64,000 nucleotides of DNA, taken from positions 307,918-371,917 of the forward strand of contig CAVREM010000042.1 in NCBI GenBank assembly GCA_963720005.1, given 5' to 3'. The notes under the pieces are model-generated. The model ran no database searches. It saw only the letters and a list, made by a program, of their open reading frames with translations, and was not told the origin of the DNA. This document shows, piece by piece, positions 1-62,928 of this stretch. The stretch's first letter is position 1. Every line of letters begins with the position of its first letter. The stretch is from an uncultured Acidobacteriota bacterium (GTDB lineage Bacteria; Acidobacteriota; Vicinamibacteria; Vicinamibacterales; CAVVIG01). Both the position numbers and the translations under genes were made by a program.

Positions 1-718
1 CTCCGCCGGATCCGCCGCCCAGCCCGTACTTCAGGAACGTCGGTGCGAGGACCACCGCGGGAATCGCGGCGCCGAGCGCCAGCCACCCGGCGTGGCGGAC
101 GCCGCGCAGGTACAGCGCGATGGCGGCGAAAGGCAGCAGCAGCGGCCACGACATGTGGACCTGCATGATCCAGGTGAGTGCCGCGCCCATCGCCAGAAAC
201 GCGGTGCGCGGCGAGAGGACGCCGATCGACAACGCTGGCACGGCTTCGAAGAAGCCGACGAAGAAGAGGATCGCGGCCGGCAGCACGTACGAGGGGTTAT
301 TGACGTGTGTCGAGAACTGGAGCGTCCAGGGCGCGGTGAGCAGCCAGCCCCAGACCAGCCATCGAGGGAGCGATGGCTCGCGGCGGCAGATGTAGGCCGC
401 GAGCCCGCAGAGCGCGGCGAACGACAACACGTTGAGAAACACGAACGGCGCCTCGGGCACAGGCGCGATCCGGAGCGGCACGCCGACGAGCAGCGGCTGC
501 AGCGCTCCGGCAATCTGGCTCTGCGTCCAGACGACGTCGGGGCCGAAATACGGCCAGCCGCCGGTCGCGTAGTACCGCAGGCCCATCAAGTAGATCTGGG
601 TCTCGTCTTCCGACCAGAATTCCGACGATAGACCGAAGGCGAGACGGCCGAGGAAGAGAGCCGCGAGAGCGCCGATCCAGGCAGGGCGGCGCAGCGAGTC
701 GGGGATCCTCGTTTTCAG
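1..718 (-). CDS. Polytopic membrane protein, N-terminal part only (gene runs off the left edge); possibly glycosyltransferase-39/ArnT-like
   Basis: Absent from the ORF track because no stop lies in the window. My minus-strand translation from about 718 is uninterrupted and hydrophobic: RIPDSLRRPAWIGALAALFLGRLAFGLSSEFWSEDETQIYLMGLRYYATGGWPYFGPDVVW...WLLTAPWTLQFSTHVNNPSYVLPAAILFFVGFF. The start codon is unclear (CTG at 718?). Confidence 0.5.
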   Translation of the reverse strand, partial: MKTRIPDSLRRPAWIGALAALFLGRLAFGLSSEFWSEDETQIYLMGLRYYATGGWPYFGPDVVWTQSQIAGALQPLLVGVPLRIAPVPEAPFVFLNVLSFAALCGLAAYICRREPSLPRWLVWGWLLTAPWTLQFSTHVNNPSYVLPAAILFFVGFFEAVPALSIGVLSPRTAFLAMGAALTWIMQVHMSWPLLLPFAAIALYLRGVRHAGWLALGAAIPAVVLAPTFLKYGLGGGSGG

Positions 719-738
719 ATTTAAGATTGTCGATTGTA
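713..738. repeat. Half copy of the AT-rich AGATTTM-word element (TTCAGATTTAAGATTG)
   Basis: The sequence ttcagatttaagattgtcgattg matches the arm of the elements at 26453, 28119, 59210 and 62833. It lies in the divergent region between the membrane-protein gene and ubiE. Confidence 0.5.
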
Positions 739-740
739 CC

Positions 741-1454
741 GTGACCGACGTTTCGAAATCGGCGCCGAAGATCGCAGGCATGTTCGATGCGATCGCCGCC
801 CGCTACGACTTCCTCAATCACTTCCTGAGCGCCGGCATCGATCGGCACTGGCGGACCCAGGCGGTCCGCAGCCTCCGCCTGACCGGCTCGGAGCGCGTGC
901 TCGATCTCTGCACGGGCACCGGCGATCTGGCGATTGCGCTGCGCACCGGTCATCCGGGCGCGGCGCGGGTCGTCGGCGTCGACTTCGCGGCGGCGATGCT
1001 GGCGATGGGCCTCGACAAGGTGAGGCGGCGCGGACTCGCCGACCGCGTTCAACTGGTGCGCGCGGACGCGACAAGGGTGCCGCTGTCCAGCGGCTCGACC
1101 GACGCGGTGACGATCGCGTTCGGCATCAGGAACGTCGAAGACCCGGAGGCTGCCTGCCGGGAAATGCTTCGCGTCCTCGTCCCTGGCGGCCGTCTCGCCA
1201 TCCTCGAGTTCGCGGTGCCTTCGTCGCCGCTGGTTCGCTCGGTGTACATGACCTATTTCAAGCACGTGCTGCCGCGGCTGGGCCGGCTGATCTCGCGCCA
1301 CGACACGGCATACGAGTACTTGCCGGCATCGGTCGGCGCGTTCGCGTCGCCTGCTGAGTTTGCCTCGCTCCTTCGTGGCGCGGGATTTGTCGATGTTTCA
1401 ATACGCCCGCTCACGGCCGGGGCCGTGGTGCTGTACAGCGCGCGAAAGCCCTAG
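741..1454 (+). CDS. ubiE: Demethylmenaquinone/ubiquinone C-methyltransferase (UbiE/MenG)
   Basis: Intact 237-aa ORF. It has the FDAIAARYDFLNHFLSAGIDRHWR signature and the SAM motif VLDLCTGTGD typical of UbiE/MenG. Confidence 0.9.
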   Translation: MTDVSKSAPKIAGMFDAIAARYDFLNHFLSAGIDRHWRTQAVRSLRLTGSERVLDLCTGTGDLAIALRTGHPGAARVVGVDFAAAMLAMGLDKVRRRGLADRVQLVRADATRVPLSSGSTDAVTIAFGIRNVEDPEAACREMLRVLVPGGRLAILEFAVPSSPLVRSVYMTYFKHVLPRLGRLISRHDTAYEYLPASVGAFASPAEFASLLRGAGFVDVSIRPLTAGAVVLYSARKP

Positions 1455-1456
1455 CT

Positions 1457-1600
1457 GGAGAGTTGGTGAGTTGGTGAGTTGGAGAGTTAGAGAGTTGGAG
1501 AAGTTAGAAGGTTGGAGAATCGGTGAACTCGAGAGAGTGCGGATCGCAGACTTACGCCTGAACTCATCAACTCTCCAATTCGCGAATTCACCAACTGACT
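1457..1600. repeat. Imperfect palindrome built from GAGTTGGT words
   Basis: Left arm gagttggtgagttggtgagttggagagttagagagttggagaagttagaaggttggagaatcggtgaactc. About 28 nt of core follows, then the right arm gaactcatcaactctccaattcgcgaattcaccaact, which uses the reverse-complement words. Confidence 0.8.
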
Positions 1601-1649
1601 CGAAGCGGGCCGTCCAGAAGTCGCCGCTGGTATACTGGCTAACTACCTG

Positions 1650-2616: not shown

Positions 2617-2815
2617 CAGTTCACACTTCCATGTGCACCGTTCTCGGTTCGTGTTCAAGTTCGGTTCTCGGTTCTCGGTTCTCGGTTCGGTTCGGTTCGG
2701 GGTTCGCAGTTCGAGGTGCCCCGAACCCAGAACCCCGAACTCCGAACCGCGAACCTGGAACGTCGAACCGAACTTGAACACGAACCGAGAAGTGAGAACC
2801 GAGAAGCGTGAACTG
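2617..2815. repeat. 199-bp palindrome built from GTTCTCG/GTTCGGT words
   Basis: Termini are CAGTTCAC...GTGAACTG. A perfect 27-bp arm match links 2641-2667 (ttctcggttcgtgttcaagttcggttc) to 2765-2791 (its reverse complement). The centre is near 2716. It fills the tonB-miaA spacer. Confidence 0.9.
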
Positions 2816-20277: not shown

Positions 20278-20318
20278 GAGTCGGTAGTCGGTGTTGGTAG
20301 TCGGTAGTCGAGAGTCGG
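20278..20318. repeat. GTAGTCG-word tandem repeat (half element)
   Basis: The sequence is gagtcggtagtcggtgttggtagtcggtagtcgagagtcgg. The reverse-complement word CGACTAC is tandemly repeated at 48835-48873. Confidence 0.75.
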
Positions 20319-20331
20319 TTGACCGCCGGCG

Positions 20332-22971: not shown

Positions 22972-23496
22972 ATGCTTTCGCTGAACCTCGCGAAGGTCAG
23001 GGAGGCCCACGAGCGGTTCGAGCAGGTTTATGGCCCCGAACAGCTGGGCACCTTCGACGACGCCTTCCGTGTTGCCGGGCCGGTCACCCTTGCCTTCGAT
23101 ATCTACAAGGACAAGGACCAGTTCCGGCTGGTCGGCGGCGTGCAGACTACGCTGGAACTGCCGTGCAGCCGCTGCCTCGAGGCGTTCACGTGGCCGGTCG
23201 ACTCGTCGTTCGACCTGCGGTACCAGCCGCACGCGCGTAACACCGGCGAGGGCGAGCGCGAGATCGAGGAAGACGATCTGACGACGGCGTTCTACGAGAA
23301 CGAGACGATCGATCTCGGACAGTTGATGCGCGAGCAGTTCTACCTGGCGGTGCCGATGAAGCCACTCTGCCGGGACGAGTGCAAAGGGTTGTGTCCGACC
23401 TGCGGAACCAACTGGAACAAGGGCGCCTGCGACTGTTCGAACCAATGGGAGGATCCCCGCCTTGCCGCCTTGAAGGCGTTACGGAGGGAGTCTTAG
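22972..23496 (+). CDS. yceD: YceD/DUF177 family protein
   Basis: Contains CSRCLEAF...CRDECKGLCPTCGTNWN and sits upstream of rpmF, as is usual. ATG 22972 is preceded by GAGAGG. Confidence 0.8.
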   Translation: MLSLNLAKVREAHERFEQVYGPEQLGTFDDAFRVAGPVTLAFDIYKDKDQFRLVGGVQTTLELPCSRCLEAFTWPVDSSFDLRYQPHARNTGEGEREIEEDDLTTAFYENETIDLGQLMREQFYLAVPMKPLCRDECKGLCPTCGTNWNKGACDCSNQWEDPRLAALKALRRES

Positions 23497-23508
23497 GAGC
23501 GTAAGAAG

Positions 23509-23691
23509 ATGCCGAATCCAAAACGCCGACACTCGAAGACGCGAACGGCCAAGCGCCGCACGCACGACGCCCTCAAGGCCGTCGGCCTCAGCGAATGCCC
23601 GCACTGTCATGAGGCCAAGCCGCCCCACCGTGTCTGCCCGAACTGCGGGTACTACCGCGGCCGCCAGGCCCGCGCGGTGGACGAGGACTAG
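23509..23691 (+). CDS. rpmF: 50S ribosomal protein L32
   Basis: MPNPKRRHSKTRTAKRRTHDALK...CPHCHEAKPPHRVCPNCGYY. Confidence 0.95.
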   Translation: MPNPKRRHSKTRTAKRRTHDALKAVGLSECPHCHEAKPPHRVCPNCGYYRGRQARAVDED

Positions 23692-23700
23692 TCGGCCCGA

Positions 23701-23746
23701 GCAGTGCCAGGCACTGCACCCGAGCACCAGGCACCCAGCACCCCAG
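23701..23746. repeat. Hairpin GCAGTGC-CAG-GCACTGC followed by CAGCACC-type words
   Basis: The sequence is gcagtgccaggcactgcacccgagcaccaggcacccagcaccccag. It is word-related to 58345-58440. Confidence 0.6.
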
Positions 23747-24775
23747 ATGATTCATATCGCCGTCGACGCGATGGGCGGTGACGAGGCCCCGGGGCATATC
23801 GTCGACGGCGCCCTCGCGGCGTCGCGTCACTTCGATCTTGGCGTCACGCTGGTCGGTCCCGCGGATCGGCTCGAGCAGGAATTGAGCCGCCATCCCGGCG
23901 TCGATCGCGATCGCGTCCGCATCGTCCATGCCGACGCAGTCATCGAAATGGCGGAATCACCGACAGCGGCGTTGCGCCGCAAGCCGAACGCGTCGATCCG
24001 GATCGCCGCCGACGCGGTGGCGCGCGGCGAGGCGTCCGCGCTCTTCAGCGCCGGGCACACCGGCGCCACGGTGATGGCAGCCCATGCGGCCTTCGGCATG
24101 CTGCCCGGCGTCGACCGCCCGGCGCTCGCGGCGACGATTCCGACCCGGCGTCATCCCGCAGTGCTGCTCGACGTCGGTGCCAGCGTCGAATGCCGGCCGC
24201 AGCACCTGCTGCAATTCGCCGTCATGGGCAGCGTGTACGCGCGAGTGGCATTTGCCATCGACACGCCGCGCGTCGGCCTGTTGTCAATCGGGGAGGAAGA
24301 GACGAAAGGCAACGAGCTGACGCGCGAGGCGCACCGCCTGCTGAAGGCCTCGCCGCTGTGCTTCATCGGCAACGTCGAGGCGCGCGATGTCTACAGCGGC
24401 GCGGCGGACGTGATTGTGTCCGACGGGTTCACCGGCAACATCGCGCTGAAGGTGAGCGAAGGACTGGTGGAAGTGATCGAGGAATTGCTGCGCGACGAAC
24501 TCTCGAGCACGATCACCACGCGCGTCGGCTCGCTGCTCACCAGCCGCGCCATGCGGCATTTCCAGAAGCGCGTCGACTATTCCGAATACGGCGGCGCGCC
24601 TCTGCTCGGCCCCGCCGGGATCGCCATCGTCGGCCACGGCCGTTCGAGCGCGAAAGCGGTGCGCAACGCCGTCGCGATGGCTTACCGGTTCGTCTCGAGT
24701 CAATTCATCGAGCGCGTGGAACGTGAGATCGCGGCCGCCGCGACCCAGGCCAGCGGGAGCGGGGTTTCGCATTGA
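23747..24775 (+). CDS. plsX: Phosphate acyltransferase PlsX
   Basis: Start MIHIAVDAMGGDEAPGHIV at 23747, with DGFTGNIALK. The track ORF prefix from 23609 is spurious. Confidence 0.9.
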   Translation: MIHIAVDAMGGDEAPGHIVDGALAASRHFDLGVTLVGPADRLEQELSRHPGVDRDRVRIVHADAVIEMAESPTAALRRKPNASIRIAADAVARGEASALFSAGHTGATVMAAHAAFGMLPGVDRPALAATIPTRRHPAVLLDVGASVECRPQHLLQFAVMGSVYARVAFAIDTPRVGLLSIGEEETKGNELTREAHRLLKASPLCFIGNVEARDVYSGAADVIVSDGFTGNIALKVSEGLVEVIEELLRDELSSTITTRVGSLLTSRAMRHFQKRVDYSEYGGAPLLGPAGIAIVGHGRSSAKAVRNAVAMAYRFVSSQFIERVEREIAAAATQASGSGVSH

Positions 24776-25707: not shown

Positions 25708-26447
25708 TGTTCGATCTCTCCGGCAAGGTGGCGCTCGTCACGGGTGCGTCGCGCGGGATCGGCCGCGCGATCGCGGTCCGGCTCGCGGAACAGGGTGCGA
25801 CGGTCGTTGCCGCGGCGCGCGGAGACAACGCGGCCGAAACTGCCGCCGCAATCGCCAGAACCGGAGGGCGAGCCGAGAGCGTCGGCGTCGACGTCACCGA
25901 TCACGGCGCGGTGGCCGAGCTGCCCGGGTCGATCGTCGAACGCCACGGTCGGCTCGACATCGTCGTGAGCAACGCCGGCATCGCCCGCGATCAGCTGCTG
26001 ATGCGCATGAAACGCGACGACTGGGACACCGTGATGGCGACCAACCTGACGGCTGCCTTCACGCTCGCCCAGGCGGCGATGCGCCCGATGCTGAAGCAGC
26101 GCGGCGGGCGGATCCTCGCGGTGAGCTCGGTCGTCGGCCAGATGGGCAACGCCGGCCAGACCAACTACGCCGCGTCGAAAGCGGGTCTGATCGGCTTTGC
26201 CAAGGCGCTCGCGCGCGAGGTGGCGTCGCGCGGGATCACGGTCAACGTGATCGCCCCGGGCATGATCGACACCGACATGACGCGAGCCATCGCCGAGAAA
26301 GCGCAGGTCGACTGGGCCGCGCAGATCCCGCTCGGCCGGCTGGGCACGGTCGACGACGTGGCGGCCGCGGCGTGCTTTCTCGCCTCGGACGAGGCAGCGT
26401 ATATTACAGGGCACGTGCTGGCGGTGAACGGCGGAATGTATATGTAG
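25707..26447 (+). CDS. fabG: 3-oxoacyl-ACP reductase
   Basis: VALVTGASRGIGRAIA, NYAASKAG and LASDEAAYITGHVLAVNGGMYM are present. Confidence 0.9.
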   Translation: MFDLSGKVALVTGASRGIGRAIAVRLAEQGATVVAAARGDNAAETAAAIARTGGRAESVGVDVTDHGAVAELPGSIVERHGRLDIVVSNAGIARDQLLMRMKRDDWDTVMATNLTAAFTLAQAAMRPMLKQRGGRILAVSSVVGQMGNAGQTNYAASKAGLIGFAKALAREVASRGITVNVIAPGMIDTDMTRAIAEKAQVDWAAQIPLGRLGTVDDVAAAACFLASDEAAYITGHVLAVNGGMYM

Positions 26448-26452
26448 CGGTG

Positions 26453-26559
26453 GAATTTAAGATTTCAGATTTAAGATTTCAGATTGGCGCCGATTTGATT
26501 GGCAGCCCGTCTCGCGGCAGCCACCAATCTTAAATCTGAAATCTTAAATCTGAAATTTC
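26453..26559. repeat. AT-rich AGATTTM-word hairpin element, copy A
   Basis: The arm gaatttaagatttcagatttaagatttcagattgg (26453-26487) is followed by the GC core cgccgatttgattggcagcccgtctcgcggcagcca, then the arm ccaatcttaaatctgaaatcttaaatctgaaatttc (26524-26559). Confidence 0.9.
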
Positions 26560-26582
26560 AGCGTTCTCGATTAGGAGGCGTG

Positions 26583-26825
26583 ATGGCGGTAGCCGACAAG
26601 GTCAAGAGCATCATCGTGGAGCAGCTCGGCGTGGACGAAGAGGAAGTGACGCCCGACGCGTCGTTCGTCGACGACCTCGGCGCCGACTCGCTCGACACGG
26701 TGGAGCTCGTCATGGCGTTCGAAGAGGAGTTCGGGATTGAGATTCCCGACGAGGACGCCGAGAAGATCACCCGCGTGAAGGAAGCGGTCGAGTACATCGA
26801 GTCGCACGCCAAGAGCAAGAAGTGA
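26583..26825 (+). CDS. acpP: Acyl carrier protein
   Basis: AGGAGG lies 5 nt upstream of the ATG at 26583. The sequence ...[32 protein letters not shown] is present. Confidence 0.95.
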
Positions 26826-26862
26826 CCAGGAACCGCCGGGGATGGGGCCCCGGATACCAAGG

Positions 26863-28118
<1,256 letters not shown>

Positions 28119-28229
28119 AGATTTAAGATTTCAGATTTCAGATTTAAGATTGGAACGGTCTCGCATGATGGGCTGCCAATCGATAACCTGCGCCAATCTG
28201 AAATCTGAAATCATGAAATCTTAAATTTC
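28119..28229. repeat. AT-rich AGATTTM-word hairpin element, copy B (core inverted relative to copy A)
   Basis: Arms are agatttaagatttcagatttcagatttaagattgg and ccaatctgaaatctgaaatcatgaaatcttaaatttc. The reverse complement of the core contains GATTGGCAGCCC, identical to copy A. Confidence 0.9.
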
Positions 28230-28239
28230 AGCTTCTCTT

Positions 28240-29018
<779 letters not shown>

Positions 29019-33993: not shown

Positions 33994-34093
33994 CTCCGCG
34001 GCTCATTGGCGACTAGAGACTGGACGAGATCCTGGCGCGGAGAACCATCCTTGACCTGAAGGTTGGACCGACGTCGGGCATTTTGTCCTGGCT

Positions 34094-35387: not shown

Positions 35388-35416
35388 CCGGCGCTGATCT
35401 TAGCCGACCCACGCTT

Positions 35417-35491
35417 GAGTTGGTGAGTTCGTGAGTTGGTGAGTTCGTGAGTCGATGAATTCACCAACTCTCCAATTCACCAACTCACCAA
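35417..35491. repeat. Palindrome built from GAGTTGGT/GAGTTCGT words (same word family as 1457-1600)
   Basis: The sequence is gagttggtgagttcgtgagttggtgagttcgtgagtcgatGAATTCaccaactctccaattcaccaactcaccaa. It lies between the divergent MFS and deacetylase genes. Confidence 0.85.
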
Positions 35492-35509
35492 TGTAGAATT
35501 GCGCTCCCC

Positions 35510-36548: not shown

Positions 36549-36642
36549 GTAGGGCGGACCGCTGTAGGGCGGACCTCTTAGGTCCGCCGATTCCCGAGAA
36601 ACGCCGGGCCTGAGAGGCCCGGCCTACGGAGGCCCGGCCTAC
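36549..36642. terminator. REP-like GC hairpins between convergent genes (possible bidirectional terminator)
   Basis: GTAGGGCGGACC...GTAGGGCGGACC-TCTTA-GGTCCGCC has its stem at 36568-36588. GCCGGGCC-TGAGA-GGCCCGGCCTAC (36603-36627) is followed by GGCCCGGCCTAC. No U-tracts are present. Confidence 0.45.
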
Positions 36643-40612: not shown

Positions 40613-40725
40613 CGGATCACGCGGAGCCGTCGAAGCGGCCAGCAATCGCTCCAGCGCACGAACCGAACCTACGCGGACGGAGAACGAGAACCGCGAGGAG
40701 CGACAGTGTACAATCTCAGCCTCCA

Positions 40726-43261: not shown

Positions 43262-43316
43262 CGACGCCTCTGCGCTCTGCGCCTCTGCGTCCTCTGCTCC
43301 CTCTGCGTCCTCGGCG
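43262..43316. repeat. CCTCTGCG-word tandem repeat at the leuS/lptE junction
   Basis: The sequence is cgacgcctctgcgctctgcgcctctgcgtcctctgctccctctgcgtcctcgg. In one frame it reads [18 protein letters not shown], which looks like a signal peptide. Confidence 0.6.
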
Positions 43317-45180: not shown

Positions 45181-45426
45181 TCCGCCTTCGCCCTGTCCTA
45201 TCGCGTGGGCTTCGGCGGACAAGTCCGCCTTCGCCCTGTCCTATCGCGTGGGCTTTGGCGGACAAGTCCGCCTTCGCCCTGTCCTATCACGTGGGCTTTG
45301 GCGGACAAGTCCGCCTTCGCCCTGTCCTATCGCGTGGGCTTTGGCGGACAAGTCCGCCTTCGCCCTGTCCTATCGCGTGGGCTTCGGCGGACAAGTCCGC
45401 CTTCGCCCTGTCCTATCGCGTGGGCT
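45181..45426. repeat. Tandem array 1: 43-bp unit x about 5.7
   Basis: The unit is tccgccttcgccctgtcctatcgcgtgggcttcggcggacaag, starting at 45181, 45224, 45267, 45310, 45353 and 45396. Copies are more than 95% identical. Each junction forms GGCGGA-CAAG-TCCGCC. Confidence 0.95.
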
Positions 45427-45481
45427 GTAGGCCGGGCCTCTCAGGCCCGGCATTGCGGCGGACCTAAAAGGTCCGTCCTAC
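45427..45481. repeat. Two REP-like hairpins separating arrays 1 and 2
   Basis: The hairpins are GTAGGCCGGGCC-TCTCA-GGCCCGGC and GGCGGACC-TAAAA-GGTCCGTCCTAC. Confidence 0.8.
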
Positions 45482-45526
45482 ATCAGGCGCCTCGCGCGAG
45501 AGCGGAGGCGGGGCGGCTTGCCGCGC

Positions 45527-45660
45527 CGTAGCTCGCTCCCGATGGCAGGCGAGCGAAGGCGGGGGGCTTCCCACGTAGACGCTCCCGATGGTAGGCGAGC
45601 GAAGGCGGGGGCTCGCCCCCCGTAGCTCGCTCCCGATGGTAGGCGAGCGAAGGCTGGGGA
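45527..45660. repeat. Tandem array 2: about 47-bp unit x 3
   Basis: The unit cgtagctcgctcccgatggtaggcgagcgaaggcgggggc... starts at 45527, 45574 and 45621. Each unit has an internal hairpin GCTCGC-N12-GCGAGC. Confidence 0.85.
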
Positions 45661-45663
45661 CAT

Positions 45664-45831
45664 CCACCTTCGCGCTTCACGCTAGTCGGTGGACAAGCCC
45701 ACCACCGCGCTTCACGCTTCGGCGGACAAGCCCACCTTCGCGCTTCACGCTTCGGTGGACAAGCCCACCTCCGCGCTTCGCGCTACGGCGGACAAGCCCA
45801 CCTTCGCGTTTCACGCTACGGTGGACAAGCC
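45664..45831. repeat. Tandem array 3: 33-bp unit x 5, abutting the padR ATG
   Basis: The unit ccaccttcgcgcttcacgcttcggtggacaagc starts at 45664, 45699, 45732, 45765 and 45798. Junction hairpins GGTGG-ACAAGC-CCACC form between units. The last unit ends at 45831. Confidence 0.9.
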
Positions 45832-46179: not shown

Positions 46180-48834
46180 CTCCCTGGCAGCGGCTCTTTC
46201 AACGAGGCCGGCGCGATGTCGATCTCCGCGAGGAAATCGACGCTCATCTCGCCATGGACGTGCGTGTTCGGATCCAGGCGGGCGACGACCCGGAATCCGC
46301 CCGGCGGGCCGCGGTCAAGGACTTCGGCAACGTCATGCTGACAAGAGAAGCCACGCGACGAAGCTGGAAAGGCGAGCGGCTCGTCGAGGCGTTTGCCGAT
46401 CTGGCACGCGACATCGCCTATGCGGTGCGGCTGCTGAGACGAACCCCTGGCTTCGCCCTCGTCGTCATTGCCGTGCTCGGGATCGGCGTTGGCGCGAACG
46501 CCGCGGTGTTCAGCCTGTTCAAGGGAGTCGTTCTGCGGCCGCTGCCAGGCGTGGACGATGCGAACGGACTCGGCGTGGTCATCACAAGGACCACCGGCGG
46601 TCGGATCATGCCGTTGACTCACCCCGACTTCGAATACATCCGCGATCACGACCAGGTATTTACGTCGCTTGCCGCGTCGAGCAATCAGCGGCTCAGCATC
46701 GCAGCCGATGGACGAACCGAACGGGTCTGGACCGAGATAGTGAGCGGGCGGTACTTCGAGACCCTGGGCGTCAATGCTGAGCTCGGTCGTGTGCTCGATC
46801 CGGGTGACGACGTCGCACCGGGCGGACATCCGGTCGCGGTCATCAGCGACGGGCTGTGGCGGCGGATGTTCAGCGCCGACCAGCAGATTGTCGGCCGAAC
46901 GGTTCGCATCAACACCCAGACGTTCACCATCGTCGGCGTCGCGGAACGGGGTTTCCGGGGCTCGATCGTCAGCATGGTGGTCGACCTGTTCGTGCCGCTG
47001 ATGATGCAGCCGCAAGTCGCCCCGCCGGGCCAGCTGAATCGTCGCGAGGCGTCGATGCTGATGGTGCTTGGACGCCTCAAGCCCGGGACGCCGCTGGCGA
47101 CGGCAGCCGCGCAGACCGAGGTGCTTGCCGCCCAGCTCGCGGCCGAATTTCCGATGCCCGAATTCTCCTCTCGCGGGACGGTGATTCCGCTGTGGCGGTC
47201 ACCATTTGGCGCACAGACTTACCTGCTGCCAGCGGTCGGGCTGCTCGGCGCGATGGGAGTCCTCGTGCTGGTCGTGGTGTGCGCCAACCTCGCCAACCTC
47301 GTGTTCGTTCGCGGATTGTCGCGCCAGACCGAGATTGCCATGCGCCTGGCGCTTGGCGCCAGCCGCCTCCGAGTGCTGCGCCTGCTCTTCATCGAGAACG
47401 TGGCACTGGCCCTTCCCGGTGCGGCAATCGGCTTGGGTGTCTCGACGTGGCTCCTGGCGATGATCAGTTTCAACGACCCCGGCGGGGCCGCTCCCGCGGC
47501 CACGGAGCTCGACCTGAGCCTCGACGGGCTTGTCATCGGCTTCGCCATCGGCGCGGCCTGCGTCAGCACCCTGCTGTTCGGACTCTGGCCGTCGATCCGC
47601 AGCTCGCGGCTGGACTTGATTGCGGTCATCAAGCAGGACGGGTCATCGCCGGCCACGTCGCGGGCGCGGCTGCGTGGAGCACTCGTCGCAGCGGAAATCG
47701 CGGTGGCGCTGGTGCTGCTCATCAGCGCGGGGCTCGTCGTCCGCACTGTTCGTGCCATGGAGACAGCCGACGTCGGGTTCGATCCGCGGGATGTCGTCTC
47801 GGTTCAGCTCGACGTCAAGCCGGATGGTTATGACGACGCGCGCGGCCGCGTCCTGTACGAGCAGCTGACCGACTCGTTGCGGCGCCAGCCTGGTATCGAA
47901 GCAGCGGCCGTGGCGGCGTACCCGCCGCTTCGGCTCGTGCCGGGCGGCGACGTCAGGCGGATCACGATCGAAGGGTATGTCGCGCGCGACAACGAAGACC
48001 TCAGCTTCCAGTCCAACGTGGTCGGCCCCTCGTATTTCACGACGCTGCGCATCCCGATGCGGGCGGGCCGTGAATTCGACGAGCGCGACACACAGGACGC
48101 CCCGCTTGCCGCGATCGTCAACGAGACGATGGCGCGCCGGTTCTGGGACAGCCCGGCGAACGCCATCGGCAAGCGATTTCAATCGGGACGCGGCTGGTGG
48201 ACGATCGTCGGCGTCGCCGCTGATATCAAGTATTTCACCGTCAATGAATCTCCTCGACCGTTCCTTTACGCAGCGCTTGCCCAGAACTATCGATCGGAGA
48301 TGATGGTGCACGCGCGGGCCGTGGCCGGATCGCGCAACCTCGTGGAGTTGGGCCGCCGCACCATCTCCGCTCACGACCCGACGCTCACACTGCTGCAGGT
48401 GGCGACGTTGGCCGACCAGGTCAAGACTGGGATGGGCATCCAGCAACTTGCCGGGCTGGGTCTGACGGCTTTCGGTGGCCTCGCGATCGGGCTGGCGGCG
48501 CTGGGCCTGTTCGGGCTCGTTTCCTATACGGTCAAACAAAGCACCCGCGAGATTGGCATCCGGATCGCGCTCGGCGCGTCGCGCACGTCGGTCGTCGGAC
48601 GATTCCTGATGCACGGCGTGAGGCTCGCGTCAATCGGCGCCGTGGCTGGCATGGCGATCGCTGCGCTCTCGACGCGCTTCATGTCGTGCGTTGCTGTACG
48701 GGGTAGGAGCGCTCGACGCCGTGACCTTCGCGGGCGCCGCAGCCGTCGTGATCGCGATCGCCTCCCTATCAGCGGGGTTCGCCGCATCACGCGCGGCCGC
48801 CGTCCAGCCGACAGTCGCTCTTCGACGGAACTGA
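46176..48834 (+). CDS. Duplicated FtsX/MacB-type permease, ADOP-family-like (second copy; frame broken at about 48690)
   Basis: The ATGA overlap with padR is present. MTPWQRLFQRGRRDVDLREEIDAHLAMDV... begins the protein. The true C-terminus LLYGVGALDAVTFAGAAAVVIAIASLSAGFAASRAAAVQPTVALRRN* is in a shifted frame and ends at 48834. Confidence 0.8.
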
Positions 48835-48873
48835 CTACCGACTACTGACTACCGACTACCGACTACCGACTAC
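48835..48873. repeat. CGACTAC-word tandem repeat between convergent genes
   Basis: The sequence is ctaccgactactgactaccgactaccgactaccgactac, the reverse-complement word of 20278-20318. Confidence 0.8.
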
Positions 48874-49541
48874 TGGGGCTTCTTGTCGGTGTATTTCGGG
48901 ATGACGCGCCCGTCGGCGGTCACATCGGAGCCGCGGTAAATCTGAGCGGCCGGCTTGGCAGGCGCGCCGGCGATCTGGTTGATCTTGGTGACGTAGTTGC
49001 GGGTTTCGCGGTACGGCGGCACTTTCTCGCCGTACTTGGCCACCGCGACCGGGCCCGCGTTGTAGGCCGCGAGCGCGAGCACTTCGTCGTTGTTGTAGCG
49101 ATCGAGTAATTGCCGCAGGTACCTGACGCCGGCGCGAATGTTCTCGATCGGGTTGAAGGGGTTCAGCACGCCCAGCGCCTGCGACGTCGCCGGCATCAAC
49201 TGCATCAACCCTTGCGCGCCCTTGGGCGACACCGCGTAGGGATTGAACGCCGATTCCACCTGCACGACGGCGCGTACCAGATCGGGCCGGATGTTGTGCA
49301 TCCGCGAGTGCTCGACGATCACCTCGTCGTAGAGCCGCCCACGCTCGGCCGGCGCGGAGCGCGTCGCGCGTACGGCATCGGTCTTCGGGACCGCGTACGA
49401 GATGACGGGCGCAGCCCCTTCGCGCGGCTTGTTCGACAGCACCAGCGTGCCGGTGTCGTCCCGCCACGAATAGATCTGCGCCTGAGCTGGCACGGCCGCC
49501 GCGACCAGGGCCGCCGCGACCAACGCACGGATGAGCAACAT
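48870..49541 (-). CDS. Lytic transglycosylase (SLT domain) with signal peptide
   Basis: Start MLLIRALVAAALVAAAVPAQA at 49541. VVQVESAFNPYAVSPKGAQGLMQLMP and AAYNAGPVAV are present. Confidence 0.85.
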   Translation of the reverse strand: MLLIRALVAAALVAAAVPAQAQIYSWRDDTGTLVLSNKPREGAAPVISYAVPKTDAVRATRSAPAERGRLYDEVIVEHSRMHNIRPDLVRAVVQVESAFNPYAVSPKGAQGLMQLMPATSQALGVLNPFNPIENIRAGVRYLRQLLDRYNNDEVLALAAYNAGPVAVAKYGEKVPPYRETRNYVTKINQIAGAPAKPAAQIYRGSDVTADGRVIPKYTDKKPQ

Positions 49542-54839: not shown

Positions 54840-54853
54840 GGGTGATCTTCAGC

Positions 54854-54948
54854 GGGACTCGGTGCTCGTGGCTCGGTGCTCGGGAAGGCCCGGGTCGTGT
54901 CCCGAGTCCCGAGTCGCGAGTCCCGAGCACCGAGCCTCGAGCCCCGAG
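54854..54948. repeat. Palindromic element built from CTCGGTG/CGAGTCC words
   Basis: The left arm gggactcggtgctcgtggctcggtgctcggga pairs with tcccgagcaccgagcc (16-bp perfect match) inside cccgagtcccgagtcgcgagtcccgagcaccgagcctcgagccccgag. Confidence 0.8.
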
Positions 54949-54965
54949 TTTTACCAGTTTATCGG

Positions 54966-57057: not shown

Positions 57058-57094
57058 CCGCGGTCCGGACAGGCCGCGGCTGCGAGTCGCCATT

Positions 57095-57136
57095 CTGAGA
57101 CTCTGACAGACTCTGAAGATCTGAGATTTCAGACTC
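57095..57136. repeat. AGACTCTG/AGATCTG-word tandem between convergent genes
   Basis: The sequence is ctgagactctgacagactctgaagatctgagatttcagactc. Confidence 0.6.
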
Positions 57137-58344: not shown

Positions 58345-58440
58345 GGCGACCTCGCAGCACTCAGCACTCGGCAGCCCGCAGCTGGCACTCGGCAGTCGCC
58401 AGCACCCAGCACCGAGACCCGCAGTCACCCAGCACCCGGC
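58345..58440. repeat. Degenerate direct CAGCACY/CGGCAGY word run (no complementary arm)
   Basis: The sequence is cagcactcagcactcggcagcccgcagctggcactcggcagtcgccagcacccagcaccgagacccgcagtcacccagcacccggc. Confidence 0.6.
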
Positions 58441-58446
58441 ACGCCC

Positions 58447-58452
58447 TATAAT
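58447..58452 (+). promoter_or_regulatory. TATAAT box 8 nt upstream of the rsmE GTG (leaderless-type)
   Basis: The sequence reads cccTATAATtcgcccccGTG. There is no Shine-Dalgarno. Confidence 0.45.
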
Positions 58453-58460
58453 TCGCCCCC

Positions 58461-59205
58461 GTGCACCGTTTCTTCGCGCCATCCCTGGACGCCGGGGACG
58501 AGACCGTTGCGCTCCCGCGTGACGAGGCAGAGCACCTCACTCGAGTGCTGCGCATCGCCGCCGGAGACGAAGTCGCCGTCTTCGACGGGCGCGGTCACGA
58601 ATACCTGGCCCGGGTCATTGGCGCGGTCCGCCGCGATGTCCGCCTGCAGATTCTGTCGCGCATCGAGCCGGCCGCTGAACTGCCGGTGGCGGTGACGCTC
58701 GTGCAAGCCATTCTGAAGGGCGACAAGATGGACGACGTGGTCCGCGACGCGGTGATGCTCGGCGTGGCGGCCATACAGCCGGTCGTGACACGCCGCACGG
58801 AATTGACCATCGCCGCCCTCCTCCGCGGCGCGCGCCCCGACCGGTGGCGCAGGGTGGCGCTGGCCTCGGTGAAACAATCGCGGCGCGCCGTGCTGCCCGA
58901 GATTCGTACGCCGCTGACTTTTGAAACGTACCTCGACGAGCCGCCTGCCACGATGCGGCTGATGCTGGTCGAGCCGGGGGTCGACGTCGACACGGAATCG
59001 CTGGGGGTGCTTCGCGGTGTGCGAGCGCCGCATGATGCCTCCGTCATCGTCGGCCCGGAAGGCGGTTGGGACCAACGGGAGTGGGCGGCGGCGCAGGCTC
59101 GCGGCGTGCAGCTGATCTCGCTCGGGCCATCGCACGCTCCGCGCCGACGCCGTGCCGATCGCGGCGCTCAGCGTCCTGAATTTCTTGTGGGACAGCGCGT
59201 GCTAG
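58461..59205 (+). CDS. rsmE: 16S rRNA (uracil1498-N3)-methyltransferase RsmE (frame broken at about 59125)
   Basis: MHRFFAPSLDAGDETVALPRDEAEHLTRVLR... and VIVGPEGGW are present. The true C-terminus RTLRADAVPIAALSVLNFLWDSAC* is in a shifted frame and ends at 59205. Confidence 0.8.
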
Positions 59206-59209
59206 ACTG

Positions 59210-59280
59210 GAATTTAAGATTTCAGATTTCAGATTTAAGATTGGCGAGGATCTGGCGGGCAGCCTGACCCCGGCCAAATC
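59210..59280. repeat. AT-rich AGATTTM-word element, copy C (left arm + core only)
   Basis: The arm gaatttaagatttcagatttcagatttaagattgg is followed by the core cgaggatctggcgggcagcctgaccccggccaaatc. The complementary arm is absent. Confidence 0.8.
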
Positions 59281-59329
59281 CGACCGCCAGCAGTAGACCA
59301 CCGGTCGACGAGACACGAGGAAGAAATCT

Positions 59330-60424
59330 ATGTCACGCGTGCCGTCCGTCCTGTGGAATTCACTCGCGGCCATCCTGTTCGGCGCCGCACTTGCCGCGCA
59401 GTCGTCGCAGAGCGAGGTCGACGCCCGCATCGCGGCGGCGCGATCCGCCGCGGGGATGGACTTCCGCAATACGTTCCTTAATCTCTGTCTGCCGTCCGGT
59501 GGCGGTGGCGCTCGTCAGGGCGCCGGCGCGCCGGCCGCTGGGGCGAACCCGCCCGCTGCCGCGCGAGGTGCGGCCCTTGGAACAGGCGCGGCCGGACGCA
59601 GCGCTGGTGCGCAAGCGCCTGCGCGCGGCGGCGCGGGGCAGCCGCCGGACCGCGCGAACTGGTACGCACCGCCCTTCAAGATCTTCGACAACTTCTATTG
59701 GCTTGGGACCCGGCAGCATTCCTCCTGGGCGCTCCAGACGAGCGAGGGTCTGATCATCATCGACACGAACTTCGACTGGGCGACGCAGCCGGAGATCATC
59801 GACGGTCTTACGAAGCTCGGGATGAACCCTCGTGACATCAAGTACGTCGTCATCAGCCACGCGCACGGCGATCATGACCAGGGCGCGGCCGAACTGCAGA
59901 AGCGCTTCGGCGCCAAGGTGGTGATGGGCGAGGCGGATTGGGCATCGACGCTGCAGCGCCCAGCCACGGCTGCAGGTGGTGTGCCGACAAAGGACATCGC
60001 CGTCGGGCCCGACGTCTACAAGCTGACGCTGGGAGATACGAGCGTTCAGATCGTTCCGACGCCCGGCCACACAGCCGGCACGCTGTCGTACGTGTTCCCA
60101 GTGAAGGATCAGGGCCGGACCGTAATCGTCGCGTATTCGGGCGGGACGTTGACCGGAAACTTCGGCACGAACGGCGTGCGGTGGGACGAGTACATCGCGT
60201 CGCAGCGCAGGATCGCAAAAGTAGCCGCCGACGCGGGCGCCGCCGTGATTCTGTCCAATCACAGCGAATATGACGGCGCCTACACGAAAGCGCGCCTCAT
60301 CGCCGCCCCGCGTCAGGTCGGCGAAAACCACCCGTTCATCGTGGGCCCCGACGCCGTCCAGCGATACTTCACGGTGATGGCCGAATGCGCGACGGCGTCA
60401 AAAATGCGGGTGGGAGCGAAGTAA
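59330..60424 (+). CDS. Secreted metallo-beta-lactamase-fold hydrolase
   Basis: Intact ORF with a signal peptide, a Gly/Ala/Pro-rich linker, then LIIIDTNFDW...VVISHAHGDHDQGAAEL (HxHxDH) and PTPGHTAGT. Confidence 0.8.
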   Translation: MSRVPSVLWNSLAAILFGAALAAQSSQSEVDARIAAARSAAGMDFRNTFLNLCLPSGGGGARQGAGAPAAGANPPAAARGAALGTGAAGRSAGAQAPARGGAGQPPDRANWYAPPFKIFDNFYWLGTRQHSSWALQTSEGLIIIDTNFDWATQPEIIDGLTKLGMNPRDIKYVVISHAHGDHDQGAAELQKRFGAKVVMGEADWASTLQRPATAAGGVPTKDIAVGPDVYKLTLGDTSVQIVPTPGHTAGTLSYVFPVKDQGRTVIVAYSGGTLTGNFGTNGVRWDEYIASQRRIAKVAADAGAAVILSNHSEYDGAYTKARLIAAPRQVGENHPFIVGPDAVQRYFTVMAECATASKMRVGAK

Positions 60425-60438
60425 CAGGGGCACCCGAC

Positions 60439-61506
60439 CTACTTGGGCATCGGAAGAAACGCGATCCGGTCGCCACGCTGCGATCCCAGCCAGAGTTCGT
60501 TCCCAATCTGGATGCCCGTCGTGGACGTCACGAAGCCGTCGATGGCAGGATGCTGGAAGATTCGGCGGAACTCCAGCGTCTTCGGGTCGATCCGCGCCAC
60601 GTTGGACGTCTCGCGCAGCGGTTCGCGCGGTTCGACGATCGACCGTCCGTCCTTGTCCGTATGGCCTGCAGCAAAAAGGACCGAACCGTCGAGTGACAGC
60701 CGGACGTTATCCGGCCGGAATCCGAGTTTGATGACGTCCTTCTGAATCGGAGTCCGGCCACGCGACAGGCGCGTGAGCTTCTCTTCGGCCCATCCGGCGA
60801 TGTACAGCCACTGCCCATCCTTTGAGATCTCGACTCCGTTCGGTGCCGTGCCCTCGCTCCCCGGGACCAGGCTCCATCCTGTCGCCGGCAAATACTGCCT
60901 GATGTCGGCGCTGTTGCTCGTAGCGGCGAAACCCCCGTCCGGCAGCGCGACCACGCCGTTGAAGACCTGCTTCGGCGGCGCCGGCGCGCAGCCGACCCAC
61001 GTAAGGATCGGAGGTGCGGCTCCCGCGTTCAGTTCGAATACTTCAATCGATTCGCGCGTGCCGTGATGGACCACGTAGAGCGTGTGGACCGCACGTTCCC
61101 CCGGCTTGAGGTAGAGACCGTGCGCTCTGAACGCATCCGGCTTTTCGATATCGAGCGGACCAGGGCAGATGGGATAGGCCTTGCGGTCGAACCGCACGTT
61201 GGGCTTCGGCGTCGGAAACAGCACGGTGGCGGTCTTCTGTCGCACGCTGACGAGGTGCAGGCGGCCGCCTTCCCGGTTTCCCGAGGCAATCAGCCACTCC
61301 GTGCCTGGAACAATCGCGAGGTCTTCAGGACTGACGAGCGTGCAGATGAACTGGATCTCTCCGACCGGCGTGCAGGGCGCCGCACCGACGGTCGCGTAGC
61401 CGGGCGCTTGCCGGCTGGTTGCTGAAGGAGCCTGTCCACCGGCTTGCAACACTGTCGACACCAATGGCAATAGCACGAACAGAATCGACGAGAGTGCTTT
61501 CATCAA
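60439..61506 (-). CDS. Secreted beta-propeller protein (paraoxonase/SMP-30/arylesterase-like guess)
   Basis: Intact ORF with AGGAGG before ATG 61506 and the signal peptide MMKALSSILFVLLPLVSTVLQA. PNGVEISKDGQWLYIAGW is present. The family call is tentative. Confidence 0.5.
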   Translation of the reverse strand: MMKALSSILFVLLPLVSTVLQAGGQAPSATSRQAPGYATVGAAPCTPVGEIQFICTLVSPEDLAIVPGTEWLIASGNREGGRLHLVSVRQKTATVLFPTPKPNVRFDRKAYPICPGPLDIEKPDAFRAHGLYLKPGERAVHTLYVVHHGTRESIEVFELNAGAAPPILTWVGCAPAPPKQVFNGVVALPDGGFAATSNSADIRQYLPATGWSLVPGSEGTAPNGVEISKDGQWLYIAGWAEEKLTRLSRGRTPIQKDVIKLGFRPDNVRLSLDGSVLFAAGHTDKDGRSIVEPREPLRETSNVARIDPKTLEFRRIFQHPAIDGFVTSTTGIQIGNELWLGSQRGDRIAFLPMPK

Positions 61507-61574
61507 GTTACCAACCTCCTGCGGCTTGGTGTCCCGTATCGGAGATTCGGTGATCCGGGCTACAAGCTATCTCA

Positions 61575-61735
61575 AAACCAGCGAGCGAGCGAGCGAGCCA
61601 CCCACCTTCGCAGCGTAGCCGCCGCTGCTACGGTGGGCAGGCGCGAACGGCCTGTCCGCCGTAGCGTAGCGAAGCGGAAGCGCGCCGGCGCAGCGGCGCG
61701 CGAGAGAGCGTGTGGGGGAGTCCGAGGGGCGCTAG
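61575..61735. repeat. GC-rich dispersed repeat (related to 6121-6335)
   Basis: The sequence is cagcgagcgagcgagcgagccacccaccttcgcagcgtagccgccgctgctacggtggg...gcgaacgg...gcgcgccggcgcagcggcgcgcgagagagcgtgtggggg. Confidence 0.6.
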
Positions 61736-61743
61736 CCCCTCGG
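61722..61743 (-). terminator. Strong hairpin 5 nt after the cyclase stop codon (no U-tract)
   Basis: CCGAGGGGC-GCTA-GCCCCTCGG forms a 9-bp GC stem. Confidence 0.4.
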
Positions 61744-61748
61744 TAAGC

Positions 61749-62741
61749 CTAGAAGATCGCGAGCGGATTCAGCGGCGAGCCGGTGCCGCCCGGAACTCTC
61801 AATGGCGCGCCGACGAACATGAAGGTCCAGCGGTTGCGCGTCCGAGCAGCGCGTGCGACTGCGTCGAGGTCCAGGTTGTCGAGTATCGGCATGCCAAGTC
61901 CCACCAGCACGAGCTCGTGCAGCGGATTGATCAGCCCCTCCACGCCGGAGGGCATGACGTCGCTCACGCCGTCGGAACCGATCACGGCCACGTCTCGCGC
62001 CTTGAGCCACAGGGCGACCGACGCATGCGAACCGGCCCCTTCCGAGATGAAGTTCCACGATCCCTTCTGACGGACGCGCTCCCATCGGCCTGTCCGGATG
62101 AGCAGCACGTCGCCGCTCCCCACCTTCACACCCGTCTTCGCTTCCCACGCCTCGAGGTCCTTGCTCGTGAGGGCAGTCCCCGGCTCGAGGAAGTCCACGC
62201 CGCGCAGCCACGGCATGTCGACCAGGACGCCGCGCGTGACGATGCCCTCCTTCATGTTCTGAATGCCGAGCTTGCGGGCTCCGTTCGCTTGCGCGTCCTC
62301 GTACGCGAACCCGTTGTAGAACTTTCCCTTGTGGGCGAAGTGCGGAAGCCCGTCGACATGCGAGTGCGCAAAGCCGTGATACTGGACCGAATAGCGGTCG
62401 CCCGCCACCTGTTGTTCACCCAACTTGCTGAGCGAGAGCTGATGCTCGAACGGGCTGCCGTTATTTGCATCGCGCTCCTTGTTGAGGTCCAGCGCGAGCG
62501 ACACAGACACGCCATCTCGAACCAGCGCGGCGGCAGCCTTGCGCTTCTCGGGCGTGATCAGGTTGAGGGTCCCCAGTTCGTCTTCCTTTCCCCAGCGCCC
62601 CCAATTGGAGATCTGCTGCATCCAGGCGTCGAACTGCTGGCGCGTGACAGCCTGCGCTCGCTGAGCGGCCGGCGCGGCGCCGGCCGCCAGCGTCGTGAGA
62701 AGGAGAGTGGCGGTCAGCAGTCTTTGCCTCGGTGCGCGCAT
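61749..62741 (-). CDS. Secreted cyclase-family protein (kynurenine-formamidase-like fold)
   Basis: Intact ORF with AAGGAG before the ATG and the signal peptide MRAPRQRLLTATLLLTTLAAGAAPA. HGFAHSHVDGLPHF, GVLVDMPW and GDVLLIRTGRW are present. Confidence 0.7.
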   Translation of the reverse strand: MRAPRQRLLTATLLLTTLAAGAAPAAQRAQAVTRQQFDAWMQQISNWGRWGKEDELGTLNLITPEKRKAAAALVRDGVSVSLALDLNKERDANNGSPFEHQLSLSKLGEQQVAGDRYSVQYHGFAHSHVDGLPHFAHKGKFYNGFAYEDAQANGARKLGIQNMKEGIVTRGVLVDMPWLRGVDFLEPGTALTSKDLEAWEAKTGVKVGSGDVLLIRTGRWERVRQKGSWNFISEGAGSHASVALWLKARDVAVIGSDGVSDVMPSGVEGLINPLHELVLVGLGMPILDNLDLDAVARAARTRNRWTFMFVGAPLRVPGGTGSPLNPLAIF

Positions 62742-62832
62742 GTGCGGTCTCCTTAAGTGTTGCGCCCAGTCGTAAAACCGTCGGCAGCAGCCGGATCATG
62801 CGCCAAGGCGTGGGAACTCGCAAGGTTAACGG

Positions 62833-62928
62833 GAATTTAAGATTTCAGATTTAAGATTTAAGATTGGCGTGCCGGACTGGGCCGCCAGTCGCGCCGTCAC
62901 CAATCTGAAATCTGTAAATCTGAAATTC
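62833..62928. repeat. AT-rich AGATTTM-word hairpin element, copy D
   Basis: The arm gaatttaagatttcagatttaagatttaagattgg is followed by the core cgtgccggactgggccgccagtcgcgccgtca, then the arm ccaatctgaaatctgtaaatctgaaattc. Confidence 0.9.

Follow-up and report, generated by a model that had tools for sequence, protein, structure and literature searches.

What are the arrays of short tandem words, often paired as hairpins, that occupy so many gene spacers of the uncultured Acidobacteriota bacterium in assembly GCA_963720005.1? We address this question in a stretch of 64,000 nucleotides of contig CAVREM010000042.1 (positions 307,918 to 371,917; hereafter the window), which has 66% G+C throughout its length. 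The element at issue would, as we reconstruct it, consist of a variable loop between two inverted arms, each made up of a 7-nt (sometimes 8-nt) word in 3-8 tandem copies, and the full form of the same design would enclose a gene of the PF05635 family (S23p, or 'four helix bundle protein'). With moderate confidence, we regard the window sites as copies lacking an open reading frame (ORF), half-copies and remnants of such a foldback class, akin to the short tandemly repeated repetitive (STRR) sequences and to the stems of ribosomal RNA (rRNA) intervening sequences (IVS). The finding is genuine and its kind is already known; what is new is the density, the richness in hairpins and a testable link to PF05635.

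Tandem Repeats Finder (TRF) reports period-7 or period-8 arrays at the sites named in the initial annotation of this DNA, the fragment at 713 being below its reporting length. Period 7 accounts for 19 of the 37 rows with at least three copies, period 8 for four, and any other period for one or two. With overlaps merged there are 22 period-7/8 arrays in 64 kb (3.4 per 10 kb), against a mean of 0.9 and a maximum of 3 in 30 dinucleotide-preserving shuffles. All but one of the 22 lie outside clear coding sequence, the sole array clearly within a gene being at 47342-47368; the array at 48833-48873 takes in the stop codons of a convergent gene pair, and that at 43262-43316 begins just past the conserved C-terminus of LeuRS (...VSVVVG, from the translation). 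The elements are thus present at very high density, confined to intergenic DNA and dominated by period 7. Their reality and intergenic location, as initially annotated, are borne out, and they are not equally common inside genes.

Each array had been said to be usually followed by its reverse complement, and this applies to seven of the 16 sites (Table 1), plus 59210 as a half-element; 'about half the sites' is the better wording. The seven strong hairpins have 27-73 Watson-Crick pairs and fold z scores of -3.7 to -13.4 relative to shuffles. Five sites are tandem-only with z near 0 (20279, 23700, 43262, 48830 and 58345), and the remainder comprise a tandem-only array (57094), the half-element (59210, z near 0), the fragment at 713 and a weak remnant at 40650.

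Comparison of orthologous spacers shows that the hairpins outlast their words in part. Relatives were collected with a FabF query against one genome per species, and the best matches, at 75-84% identity, are five Vicinamibacteria or Vicinamibacterales metagenome-assembled genomes (MAGs; L001-L005) that are syntenic with window positions 22975-36538. At the fabF-etfB spacer the window has AGATTTM words, L001 has CCACAAAG/CACAGAG mirrored by CTCTGTG, L003 a CACGAAG-type hairpin, L005 CYGTCAG mirrored by CTGAGAG/CTGATAG, and L006 (Pyrinomonadaceae) GGCCTTG mirrored by CAAGGCC-type words, with short GC hairpins in L002 and L004. The rpmF-plsX spacer, which has a weak CAGCACY array in the window, contains in L003 a full ATTTGTG/CACAAAT hairpin ending at the plsX ATG, and persistence with a change of word is likewise seen in the yceD-rpmF spacer. 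At fabG-acpP the window and L084 have an AGATTTM hairpin and L002 has a hairpin at the same position with arms of CATCTGGT, between homologous flanks (TAGCGGTG(G)AATT) and with a homologous start of the loop (GATTGGGCGCCGAT vs GATTGGCGCCGAT); L001 and L003-L005 are empty there, with 9-17 nt only. The initial annotation had it that the design is conserved and the sequence is not. The first half stands at these three spacers (fabF-etfB, rpmF-plsX and fabG-acpP), where the architecture outlasts the words, and the second fails for AGATTTM, whose sequence is conserved. L005 also reuses words (CGACTTT and CGCAAGG). Among 80 FabF loci the arrays number 1.8 per 10 kb in Vicinamibacteria-like, 1.09 in Acidobacteriota-labelled and 0.29 in all other loci, much of the last signal coming from one Latescibacterota and one Omnitrophica locus. 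The contig of L002 (JBLMXQ010000080.1) bears a Betaproteobacteria label that probably reflects mislabelling or mis-binning, since its gene order matches that of the window and of the Vicinamibacteria MAGs, with amino-acid identities of 80-96%.

In two places a hairpin marks a breakpoint of a large indel, as judged against close or syntenic relatives. At 59210 the right arm is replaced by 1.2 kb (59246-60439) with a metallo-beta-lactamase-fold gene, the hairpin being complete in L087 (619-700), and the hairpin at 35416 marks the right-hand end of a ~3 kb segment that is inserted in comparison with L001-L005 (Sel1 and MFS (major facilitator superfamily) genes, ~32600-35500). The hairpins may be hot spots for indels and insertions.

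The relatives also bear on whether the repeats are products of an error-prone long-read assembly, an explanation we consider next to impossible. It draws on the frameshifts in essential genes of the window: fabF (26858-28118) is spread over three frames within ~100 nt, with shifts near 27030-27110, and the N-terminus of the MFS gene (34094-35387) is in another frame than the remainder, which points to assembly indel errors (possibly from long reads) or to pseudogenes. Three independent metagenome contigs (L084, L087 and L157), 83-91% identical to parts of the window, nevertheless carry hairpins at the identical sites, and many unrelated assemblies and finished plasmids show an equal design.

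The turnover of words at orthologous spacers favours a different account, in which slippage generates a 7-nt array, fold-back or template switching then adds an inverted arm, and the product is a purely local mutational by-product with no identity, spread or function. The same account is helped by the CAGCACY array at 58345, which is lineage-specific and absent in L157 (~83% identical there, with the adjacent promoter-like region 100% conserved), by the half of the sites that are tandem-only, and by the diversity of words: in 631 kb of metagenome loci there are 348 period-7 TRF rows, compared with at most 29 for any other period, and they comprise 117 distinct words. It would also accord with Mrazek's polymerase-footprint idea for the heptamer excess (cited in PMC4692102). 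We nonetheless judge it unlikely, because the words have an identity that a by-product would lack. They are reused in the window, AGATTTM five times and GAGTTGGT, GTTCKSG, GTAGTCG and CAGCACY twice each, so that the proposal of a different word at each site gives way to families of words, one of which, AGATTTM, is a family of conserved sequence.

In Vicinamibacteria-like contigs the AGATTTM copies have a loop in common, which is 44-51 nt long, is non-repetitive and has GATTGGCAGCC at its centre. This loop is asymmetric and is oppositely oriented at 26453 and 28119, both between plus-strand genes. Relative to L084, whose flanks are 91% identical, ~70 nt of arms are 100% identical and the 36-nt loop has four substitutions; relative to L087 the left arm of 62833 is identical at 37 of 37 positions and the loop and flanks have diverged. 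A metagenome scan with GATTTMAGATTTMAGATTGG found at least 120 contigs of 38-71% G+C, and among the matches listed most have the full (AGATTTM)n-GATTGG-loop-CCAATC-(KAAATCT)n hairpin, some with other arrays nested within (GGTCTTTG, GTCAGTA and ATAGGTCCT). A conserved loop, arms identical across ~10% divergence, and the same 20-mer array and GATTGG junction in contigs of such different composition all argue against a by-product that arises anew at each site. A BLAST search of plasmids with the 26453 hairpin gave no match, probably a result of low-complexity masking. As a possible residue of PF05635 sequence in the AGATTTM loops, the heptamer GACGGCG, which they have in common with the PF05635 cassette of L133 (by eye), is too short to count as evidence.

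Since the arms of AGATTTM are better conserved than its loops and flanks, and the word is common across taxa, the arrays could also be iterated binding sites for a protein, either a nucleoid or regulatory protein on double-stranded DNA or one of cold-shock or four-helix-bundle type on single strands (with a footprint of ~7 nt), inverted pairs then being paired operators. Paired arrays of a similar kind in Geobacter carry an annotation as global regulator sites (PMC2700814), cold-shock proteins have been discussed as binders of heptamers (PMC4679880), and the modal array has 4-5 units. More than 100 words would however need very many proteins, the words turn over at orthologous sites, and arrays are found in every type of spacer, including 3' ends between convergent genes; overall this explanation appears very improbable. 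A preferred length of 4-5 units was also considered as a sign of binding by a pentamer and rejected: the mode is real, but it is confounded by the detection limit of TRF, whose score threshold drops short imperfect arrays.

A possible link between the window sites and a larger class comes from PF05635 genes that lie within the same design. ORFs flanking AGATTTM arrays in 120 metagenome loci were clustered and the largest clusters inspected by eye. The only recurrent non-syntenic neighbour is a ~120-aa PF05635 protein ('23S rRNA intervening-sequence / four-helix-bundle protein'), and no transposase-like family recurs among these largest clusters. AGATTTC arms enclose the gene exactly in three loci (L089, L133 and L173), and L133 has a second copy between GGCGAAR and YTTCGCC arrays; such precise placement is a further point against a local by-product. 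PF05635 homologues were then sampled by protein sequence alone to remove the bias of the search pattern. Each of the 23 genes examined in total is accompanied by period-7 arrays at a distance of no more than 140 nt; in 20 cases both sides of the gene have them, for the most part as reverse complements. (The cross-pair control for arm complementarity is weakened by words common to many cassettes, and the two-sided arrays are the more robust measure.) The words vary from cassette to cassette (GTCGGAR, AGATTTT, GGATGAA, GTAGAAA, GATGTAG, GTGATTA and others).

These cassettes span six phyla: the contig proteins are labelled Planctomycetota, Acidobacteriota and Chloroflexota (on some of the sampled proteins as Planctomycetota, Phycisphaeraceae, Pyrinomonadaceae of the Acidobacteriota, and Anaerolineae of the Chloroflexota), and the plasmids belong to Cyanobacteriota, Chloroflexota, Bacteroidota and Spirochaetota (Nostoc punctiforme, Planktothrix, Gloeocapsa, Pseudanabaena, Anabaena, Chlorohelix, Bernardetia and Treponema). 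Twenty-five of the 31 plasmids with a PF05635 match are from cyanobacteria, the classical STRR group. The PF05635 genes are found in operon spacers (such as fabH-fabD, nuoA-nuoB, oppC-oppD, and between the genes for 3-deoxy-D-arabino-heptulosonate 7-phosphate (DAHP) synthase and prephenate dehydrogenase). Several cassettes lie in defence loci (L223, Anabaena cylindrica pANACY.01; L217, Pseudanabaena; L219; L222), between cas2 and cas1, upstream of cas1, or between helicase and methylase/HEPN-domain genes. In L207 (a Pyrinomonadaceae contig, ~350-1100) a GGAAGTA/GGATGAA-armed cassette is situated between two apparent tRNA genes (by eye), which looks like another noncoding transcribed context, as rRNA is.

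S23p/PF05635 is a four-helix-bundle protein that we take to be a pentamer and a relative of Avd, the accessory protein of diversity-generating retroelements (DGR); we know of no function for the family, which is otherwise known from rRNA intervening sequences. The 23S rRNA IVS of Coxiella forms a stem-loop through its terminal inverted repeats, is cut there by RNase III, contains an S23p ORF, and has 3-4 tandem heptamers (GACAGAT), depending on the strain (PMC4990558). The window elements share with rRNA IVS the long stem formed by terminal inverted repeats, the loop with or without a PF05635 ORF and the character of a transcribed noncoding insertion, and differ in being located in mRNA spacers, in lacking an ORF and in having arms made almost wholly of tandem words. 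An Rfam search of the window gave no rRNA match, placing the elements in mRNA spacers rather than in an rRNA helix. The elements themselves have no Rfam match at the gathering threshold, and the E-value mode returned only sub-threshold microRNA-precursor hairpins, so the Rfam check proposed with the initial annotation has been answered with no matching family.

An excess of heptanucleotides in bacterial intergenic DNA has been known since 2007 and STRRs since 1990, and to our knowledge neither has an accepted origin or function. The view that the arrays belong to no described class holds only in part, since intergenic heptanucleotide or similar repeats (PMC4692102, PMC4679880, PMC2700814) and the heptamers of the Coxiella IVS (PMC4990558) have been reported. 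Heptameric repeats are over-represented in bacterial genomes, for which polymerase slippage has been suggested, and intergenic examples occur in Calothrix, Xanthomonas (GGGAATC) and Nostoc (GGGGAYT); the Xanthomonas arrays occupy the same spacers in two species with different lengths, some as inverted pairs (PMC4692102). TAACTGA repeats are present in Beggiatoaceae, cyanobacteria and Bacteroidetes (PMC4679880). Like the STRR and heptanucleotide repeats, the window arrays consist of tandem 7-nt words in several families per genome, are nearly all intergenic, vary in length and sequence between close relatives at the same spacers and in some cases form stem-loops as inverted pairs. They differ in their frequent inverted pairing (7-8 of 16 sites), in having an acidobacterium of 66% GC as host, in the many words used within 64 kb, and in the conserved loop of one family (AGATTTM).

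Geobacter metallireducens has multi-copy arrays of 3-5 tandem units of 7-9 nt, mostly as opposite-strand pairs at variable distance, annotated as 'global regulator binding sites' of classes 1-4 (PMC2700814). The resemblance to the window extends to unit length, unit number, opposite-strand pairing and multiple copies; each Geobacter class, however, has one conserved word and is read as regulator sites, and neither hairpin turnover nor a link to PF05635 is reported. Repetitive extragenic palindromic (REP) sequences and the related bacterial interspersed mosaic elements (BIME) and REPINs are similarly abundant intergenic palindromes tolerated within operons. REPs are reported to be 20-40 bp in length, conserved in sequence and headed by GTAG or CGTC (PMC3733652). 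The word hairpins, by contrast, have no such head and are built of tandem units. Eukaryotic foldback (FB) transposons have long inverted terminal repeats of short tandem repeats around a variable or absent centre; their units are longer and some copies encode a transposase, and the likeness to the window elements is an analogy only. Neither a description of heptamer-word repeats in Acidobacteria nor a paper presenting heptamer arrays as the usual surroundings of PF05635 genes came up in a literature search that was incomplete, which makes both absences weak evidence. Looking for the words themselves in the literature brought up nothing but irrelevant eukaryotic primers.

A bolder reading is that rRNA IVS, STRRs, the Geobacter and Xanthomonas arrays and the window hairpins are one phenomenon, namely a widespread and hitherto unrecognised foldback element, mobile or self-propagating, that carries PF05635 in its full form and is non-autonomous in the form of the heptamer hairpins, with the PF05635 pentamer acting on the 7-nt arrays. 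We put this forward as a tentative proposal that may well prove wrong; if true, it would explain the heptanucleotide excess in bacterial intergenic DNA.

At the DNA level the foldback elements would be selfish or neutral residents of noncoding DNA, with families that spread or are homogenised between sites. Their unit number presumably changes through replication slippage, which fits the differences in unit number among the window, L087 and L157 and the super-periods of 14 and 16 nt that are mirrored in both arms of a hairpin with 94-100% match (TRF). The arms would be kept complementary by arm-to-arm copying through template switching, which is well established as a source of mutation at quasi-palindromes. 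The two suggestions of the initial annotation thus part company, slippage with arm-to-arm copying being compatible with these observations and selection for terminator structure receiving no such support. The arms also have a polarity: the 5' arm is rich in G and keto bases (G/T) and the 3' arm in C/A, in 40 vs 18 hairpins with non-AGATT words (p 0.005) and in 55 vs 3 of AGATT type. This polarity is independent of strand because a hairpin reads alike on both strands, and such a bias beyond chance again tells against a local by-product. On both strands, reading outward from a hairpin gives C/A-rich sequence, and the Planktothrix cassette (L218) has the opposite arm polarity.

In transcripts, stems of 25-95 bp would be expected to be RNase III substrates, by analogy with rRNA IVS, and the long stems are probably cut in this way. 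If cut, the elements could be tolerated in operons, and the cistrons on either side would incidentally be separated. A stronger role is envisaged if the hairpins are RNA structures maintained by selection, whether as terminators lacking a U-tract, as REP/BIME-like stabilisers of 3' ends or as RNase III sites setting cistron expression, the tandem make-up being merely the easiest route to a long stem. The fabF-etfB spacer speaks for it, as all six genomes (window and L001-L005) keep some hairpin there of whatever sequence; moreover, hairpins fill stop-to-start spacers, the fold of site 1456 gains 19 kcal in stability on the sense strand, and the L057 array precedes a classical terminator. That canonical terminators are not enriched (15 vs 11.7 +/- 3.1 expected) could be read in the same direction; none of the terminator-like sites listed in the 20-40 kb scan coincides with a word hairpin.

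The wider sample does not bear this out. We collected 121 hairpins with an alignment score of at least 40 from the window and all loci, and their mismatches are mostly of non-transition type (250 G:T, 204 A:C and 431 other). G-U pairs show no excess on the sense strand (114 sense vs 126 antisense, from crude gene-orientation calls), 1456 being the only strong case, and the spacers are co-directional in 64 cases, convergent in 19 and divergent in 19, by the same crude calls. The balance of G-U pairs, the equal use of divergent and convergent spacers and the terminator results argue against a strand-specific RNA role as the primary explanation, and the results fit elements that are symmetric at the DNA level. 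The fabG-acpP hairpin is absent in four relatives, tandem-only arrays could not act in this manner, and a stem does not require the conserved arm sequence of AGATTTM. A simple terminator reading was rejected outright, T-tracts being lacking in most hairpins (only 54853 is followed by TTTT, and this run is on the plus strand) and canonical terminators showing no enrichment. The initial suggestion of selection for a terminator or strand-specific RNA function accordingly finds no support, and we consider selected RNA structure improbable as the general explanation.

Several observations weigh against the foldback-element reading that we prefer. About half the sites are tandem-only and need no foldback element. 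At the one pair of filled and empty sites, fabG-acpP, no target-site duplication of the kind expected for a miniature inverted-repeat transposable element (MITE) is visible, and any mobility is putative. An HMM (hidden Markov model) search found no PF05635 gene in the window or in L001-L080, and the link for the window is therefore shared design rather than direct association, the AGATTTC-armed cassettes (L089, L133 and L173) belonging to other taxa. The sample of AGATTTM hairpins was picked by its own search pattern, and gene orientation for the spacer and G-U statistics was taken from composition and ORF length only. Finally, the identity of AGATTTM arms at ~10% divergence points to a sequence-specific constraint, such as a binding protein, which a foldback element leaves unexplained.

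These findings place the phenomenon at very high density in the Acidobacteria, a dominant and poorly studied soil phylum, and the persistence of hairpins at orthologous spacers while words are replaced is an addition to the old heptamer puzzle. The enclosure of PF05635 in six phyla offers a testable handle on this protein family, and the association links several unexplained repeat phenomena. The repeats also matter for the annotation of MAGs, as they break short-read assemblies, provide stop codons at gene ends and coincide with insertion breakpoints. In the window the array at 48830-48875 provides the stops of both convergent genes (TGA and TAG within GACTACY), and in L219 (270-290) the gene that precedes the Gloeocapsa cassette terminates at a TAG contained in ATTTTAG. 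Stop codons in all frames were considered as a general property of the words and rejected, since GTTCTCG, CTCGGTG and CCTCTGCG have none on the plus strand (by inspection).

Table 1. Word arrays and hairpins of the window, with their setting and fold statistics (z, relative to shuffles).
Position	Feature	Setting	Evidence and remarks
713..735	AGATTTM-family fragment, 2-3 units, no partner arm	Divergent spacer/start region upstream of ubiE (741-1454)	Sequence reading; Pfam
1456..1600	Hairpin, GAGTTGGT-type 8-mer arms, left ~7.8 units	Fills ubiE/tonB-like spacer, begins 1 nt past stop codon	TRF; arms 1461-1496 and 1561-1596; -65.5 kcal, z -8.4; minus strand -46.6
2617..2815	Longest hairpin, ~95-nt arms, GTTCTCG/GTTCGG mirrored by CGAGAAC/CCGAAC	tonB-like/miaA spacer	73 Watson-Crick pairs; -131.6 kcal, z -13.4
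20279..20319	Tandem-only (AGTCGGT) x6, no local partner		TRF; z -0.5; word is reverse complement of 48833 word
23700..23745	Weak CAGCACY/GCACCCA array	rpmF/plsX spacer	TRF; z -0.7
26446..26565	AGATTTM hairpin, loop with GATTGGCAGCC	fabG/acpP spacer	Arms 26446-26489 and 26522-26565; z -5.2
28116..28230	AGATTTM hairpin	fabF/etfB spacer, begins at fabF stop codon	z -6.8; loop homologous to loop at 26453, inverted (loop alignment)
35416..35492	Hairpin, GAGTTGGT/GAGTTCGT arms	Divergent spacer (MFS minus, deacetylase plus)	TRF; Pfam; z -7.6
40650..40700	Weak remnant, CGAACC/GAGAAC words	Upstream of leuS	No significant hairpin, z +0.7
43262..43316	Tandem-only CCTCTGCG array, period 8-9, ~6 units	After LeuRS C-terminus	TRF; z -0.4
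48830..48875	Tandem-only (GACTACY) x6	Convergent spacer	TRF, 94% matches; z +1.7
54853..54949	GC-rich hairpin, CTCGGTG/CTCGKGG mirrored by CACCGAG/CGAGTCC	Between two minus-strand genes	29-nt arms 93% complementary; z -6.7
57094..57130	Tandem-only AGACTCTG-type array, ~3.6 units with indels	Convergent spacer	TRF; spacer z -2.2 due to small unrelated upstream GC hairpin
58345..58446	CAGCACY arrays	Divergent spacer upstream of rsmE, end at TATAAT box	TRF; Pfam; z near 0
59210..59275	AGATTTM left arm and half loop		Right arm replaced by 1.2 kb segment
62833..62928	AGATTTM hairpin	Between two minus-strand genes	Arms 62842-62880 and 62885-62926; z -3.7

The flanking genes supported by Pfam include ubiE, tonB-like, miaA, plsX, fabG, acpP, an electron transfer flavoprotein (ETF) subunit, a soluble lytic transglycosylase (SLT), rsmE and a deacetylase, among others. 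Where the arrays at 58345 end, a perfect TATAAT lies ~18 nt upstream of the rsmE GTG start (58437-58463) and is 100% conserved in L157, which suggests a very short or absent mRNA leader.

Two GC-rich palindromes headed by GTAG, at 36549-36642 (GTAGGGCGGACC...GGTCCGCC) and 45426-45480 (GTAGGCCGGGCC...GGCCCGGC), resemble classical REP elements and do not belong to the word hairpins. Three adjacent minisatellites at 45181-45831, with units of 43 nt (5.7 copies, 98% identical), 48 nt and 33/66 nt, are situated upstream of an ORF beginning at 45832, and by eye their 43-nt and 33-nt units hold short inverted segments (TCCGCC...GGCGGA and CCACC...GGTGG).

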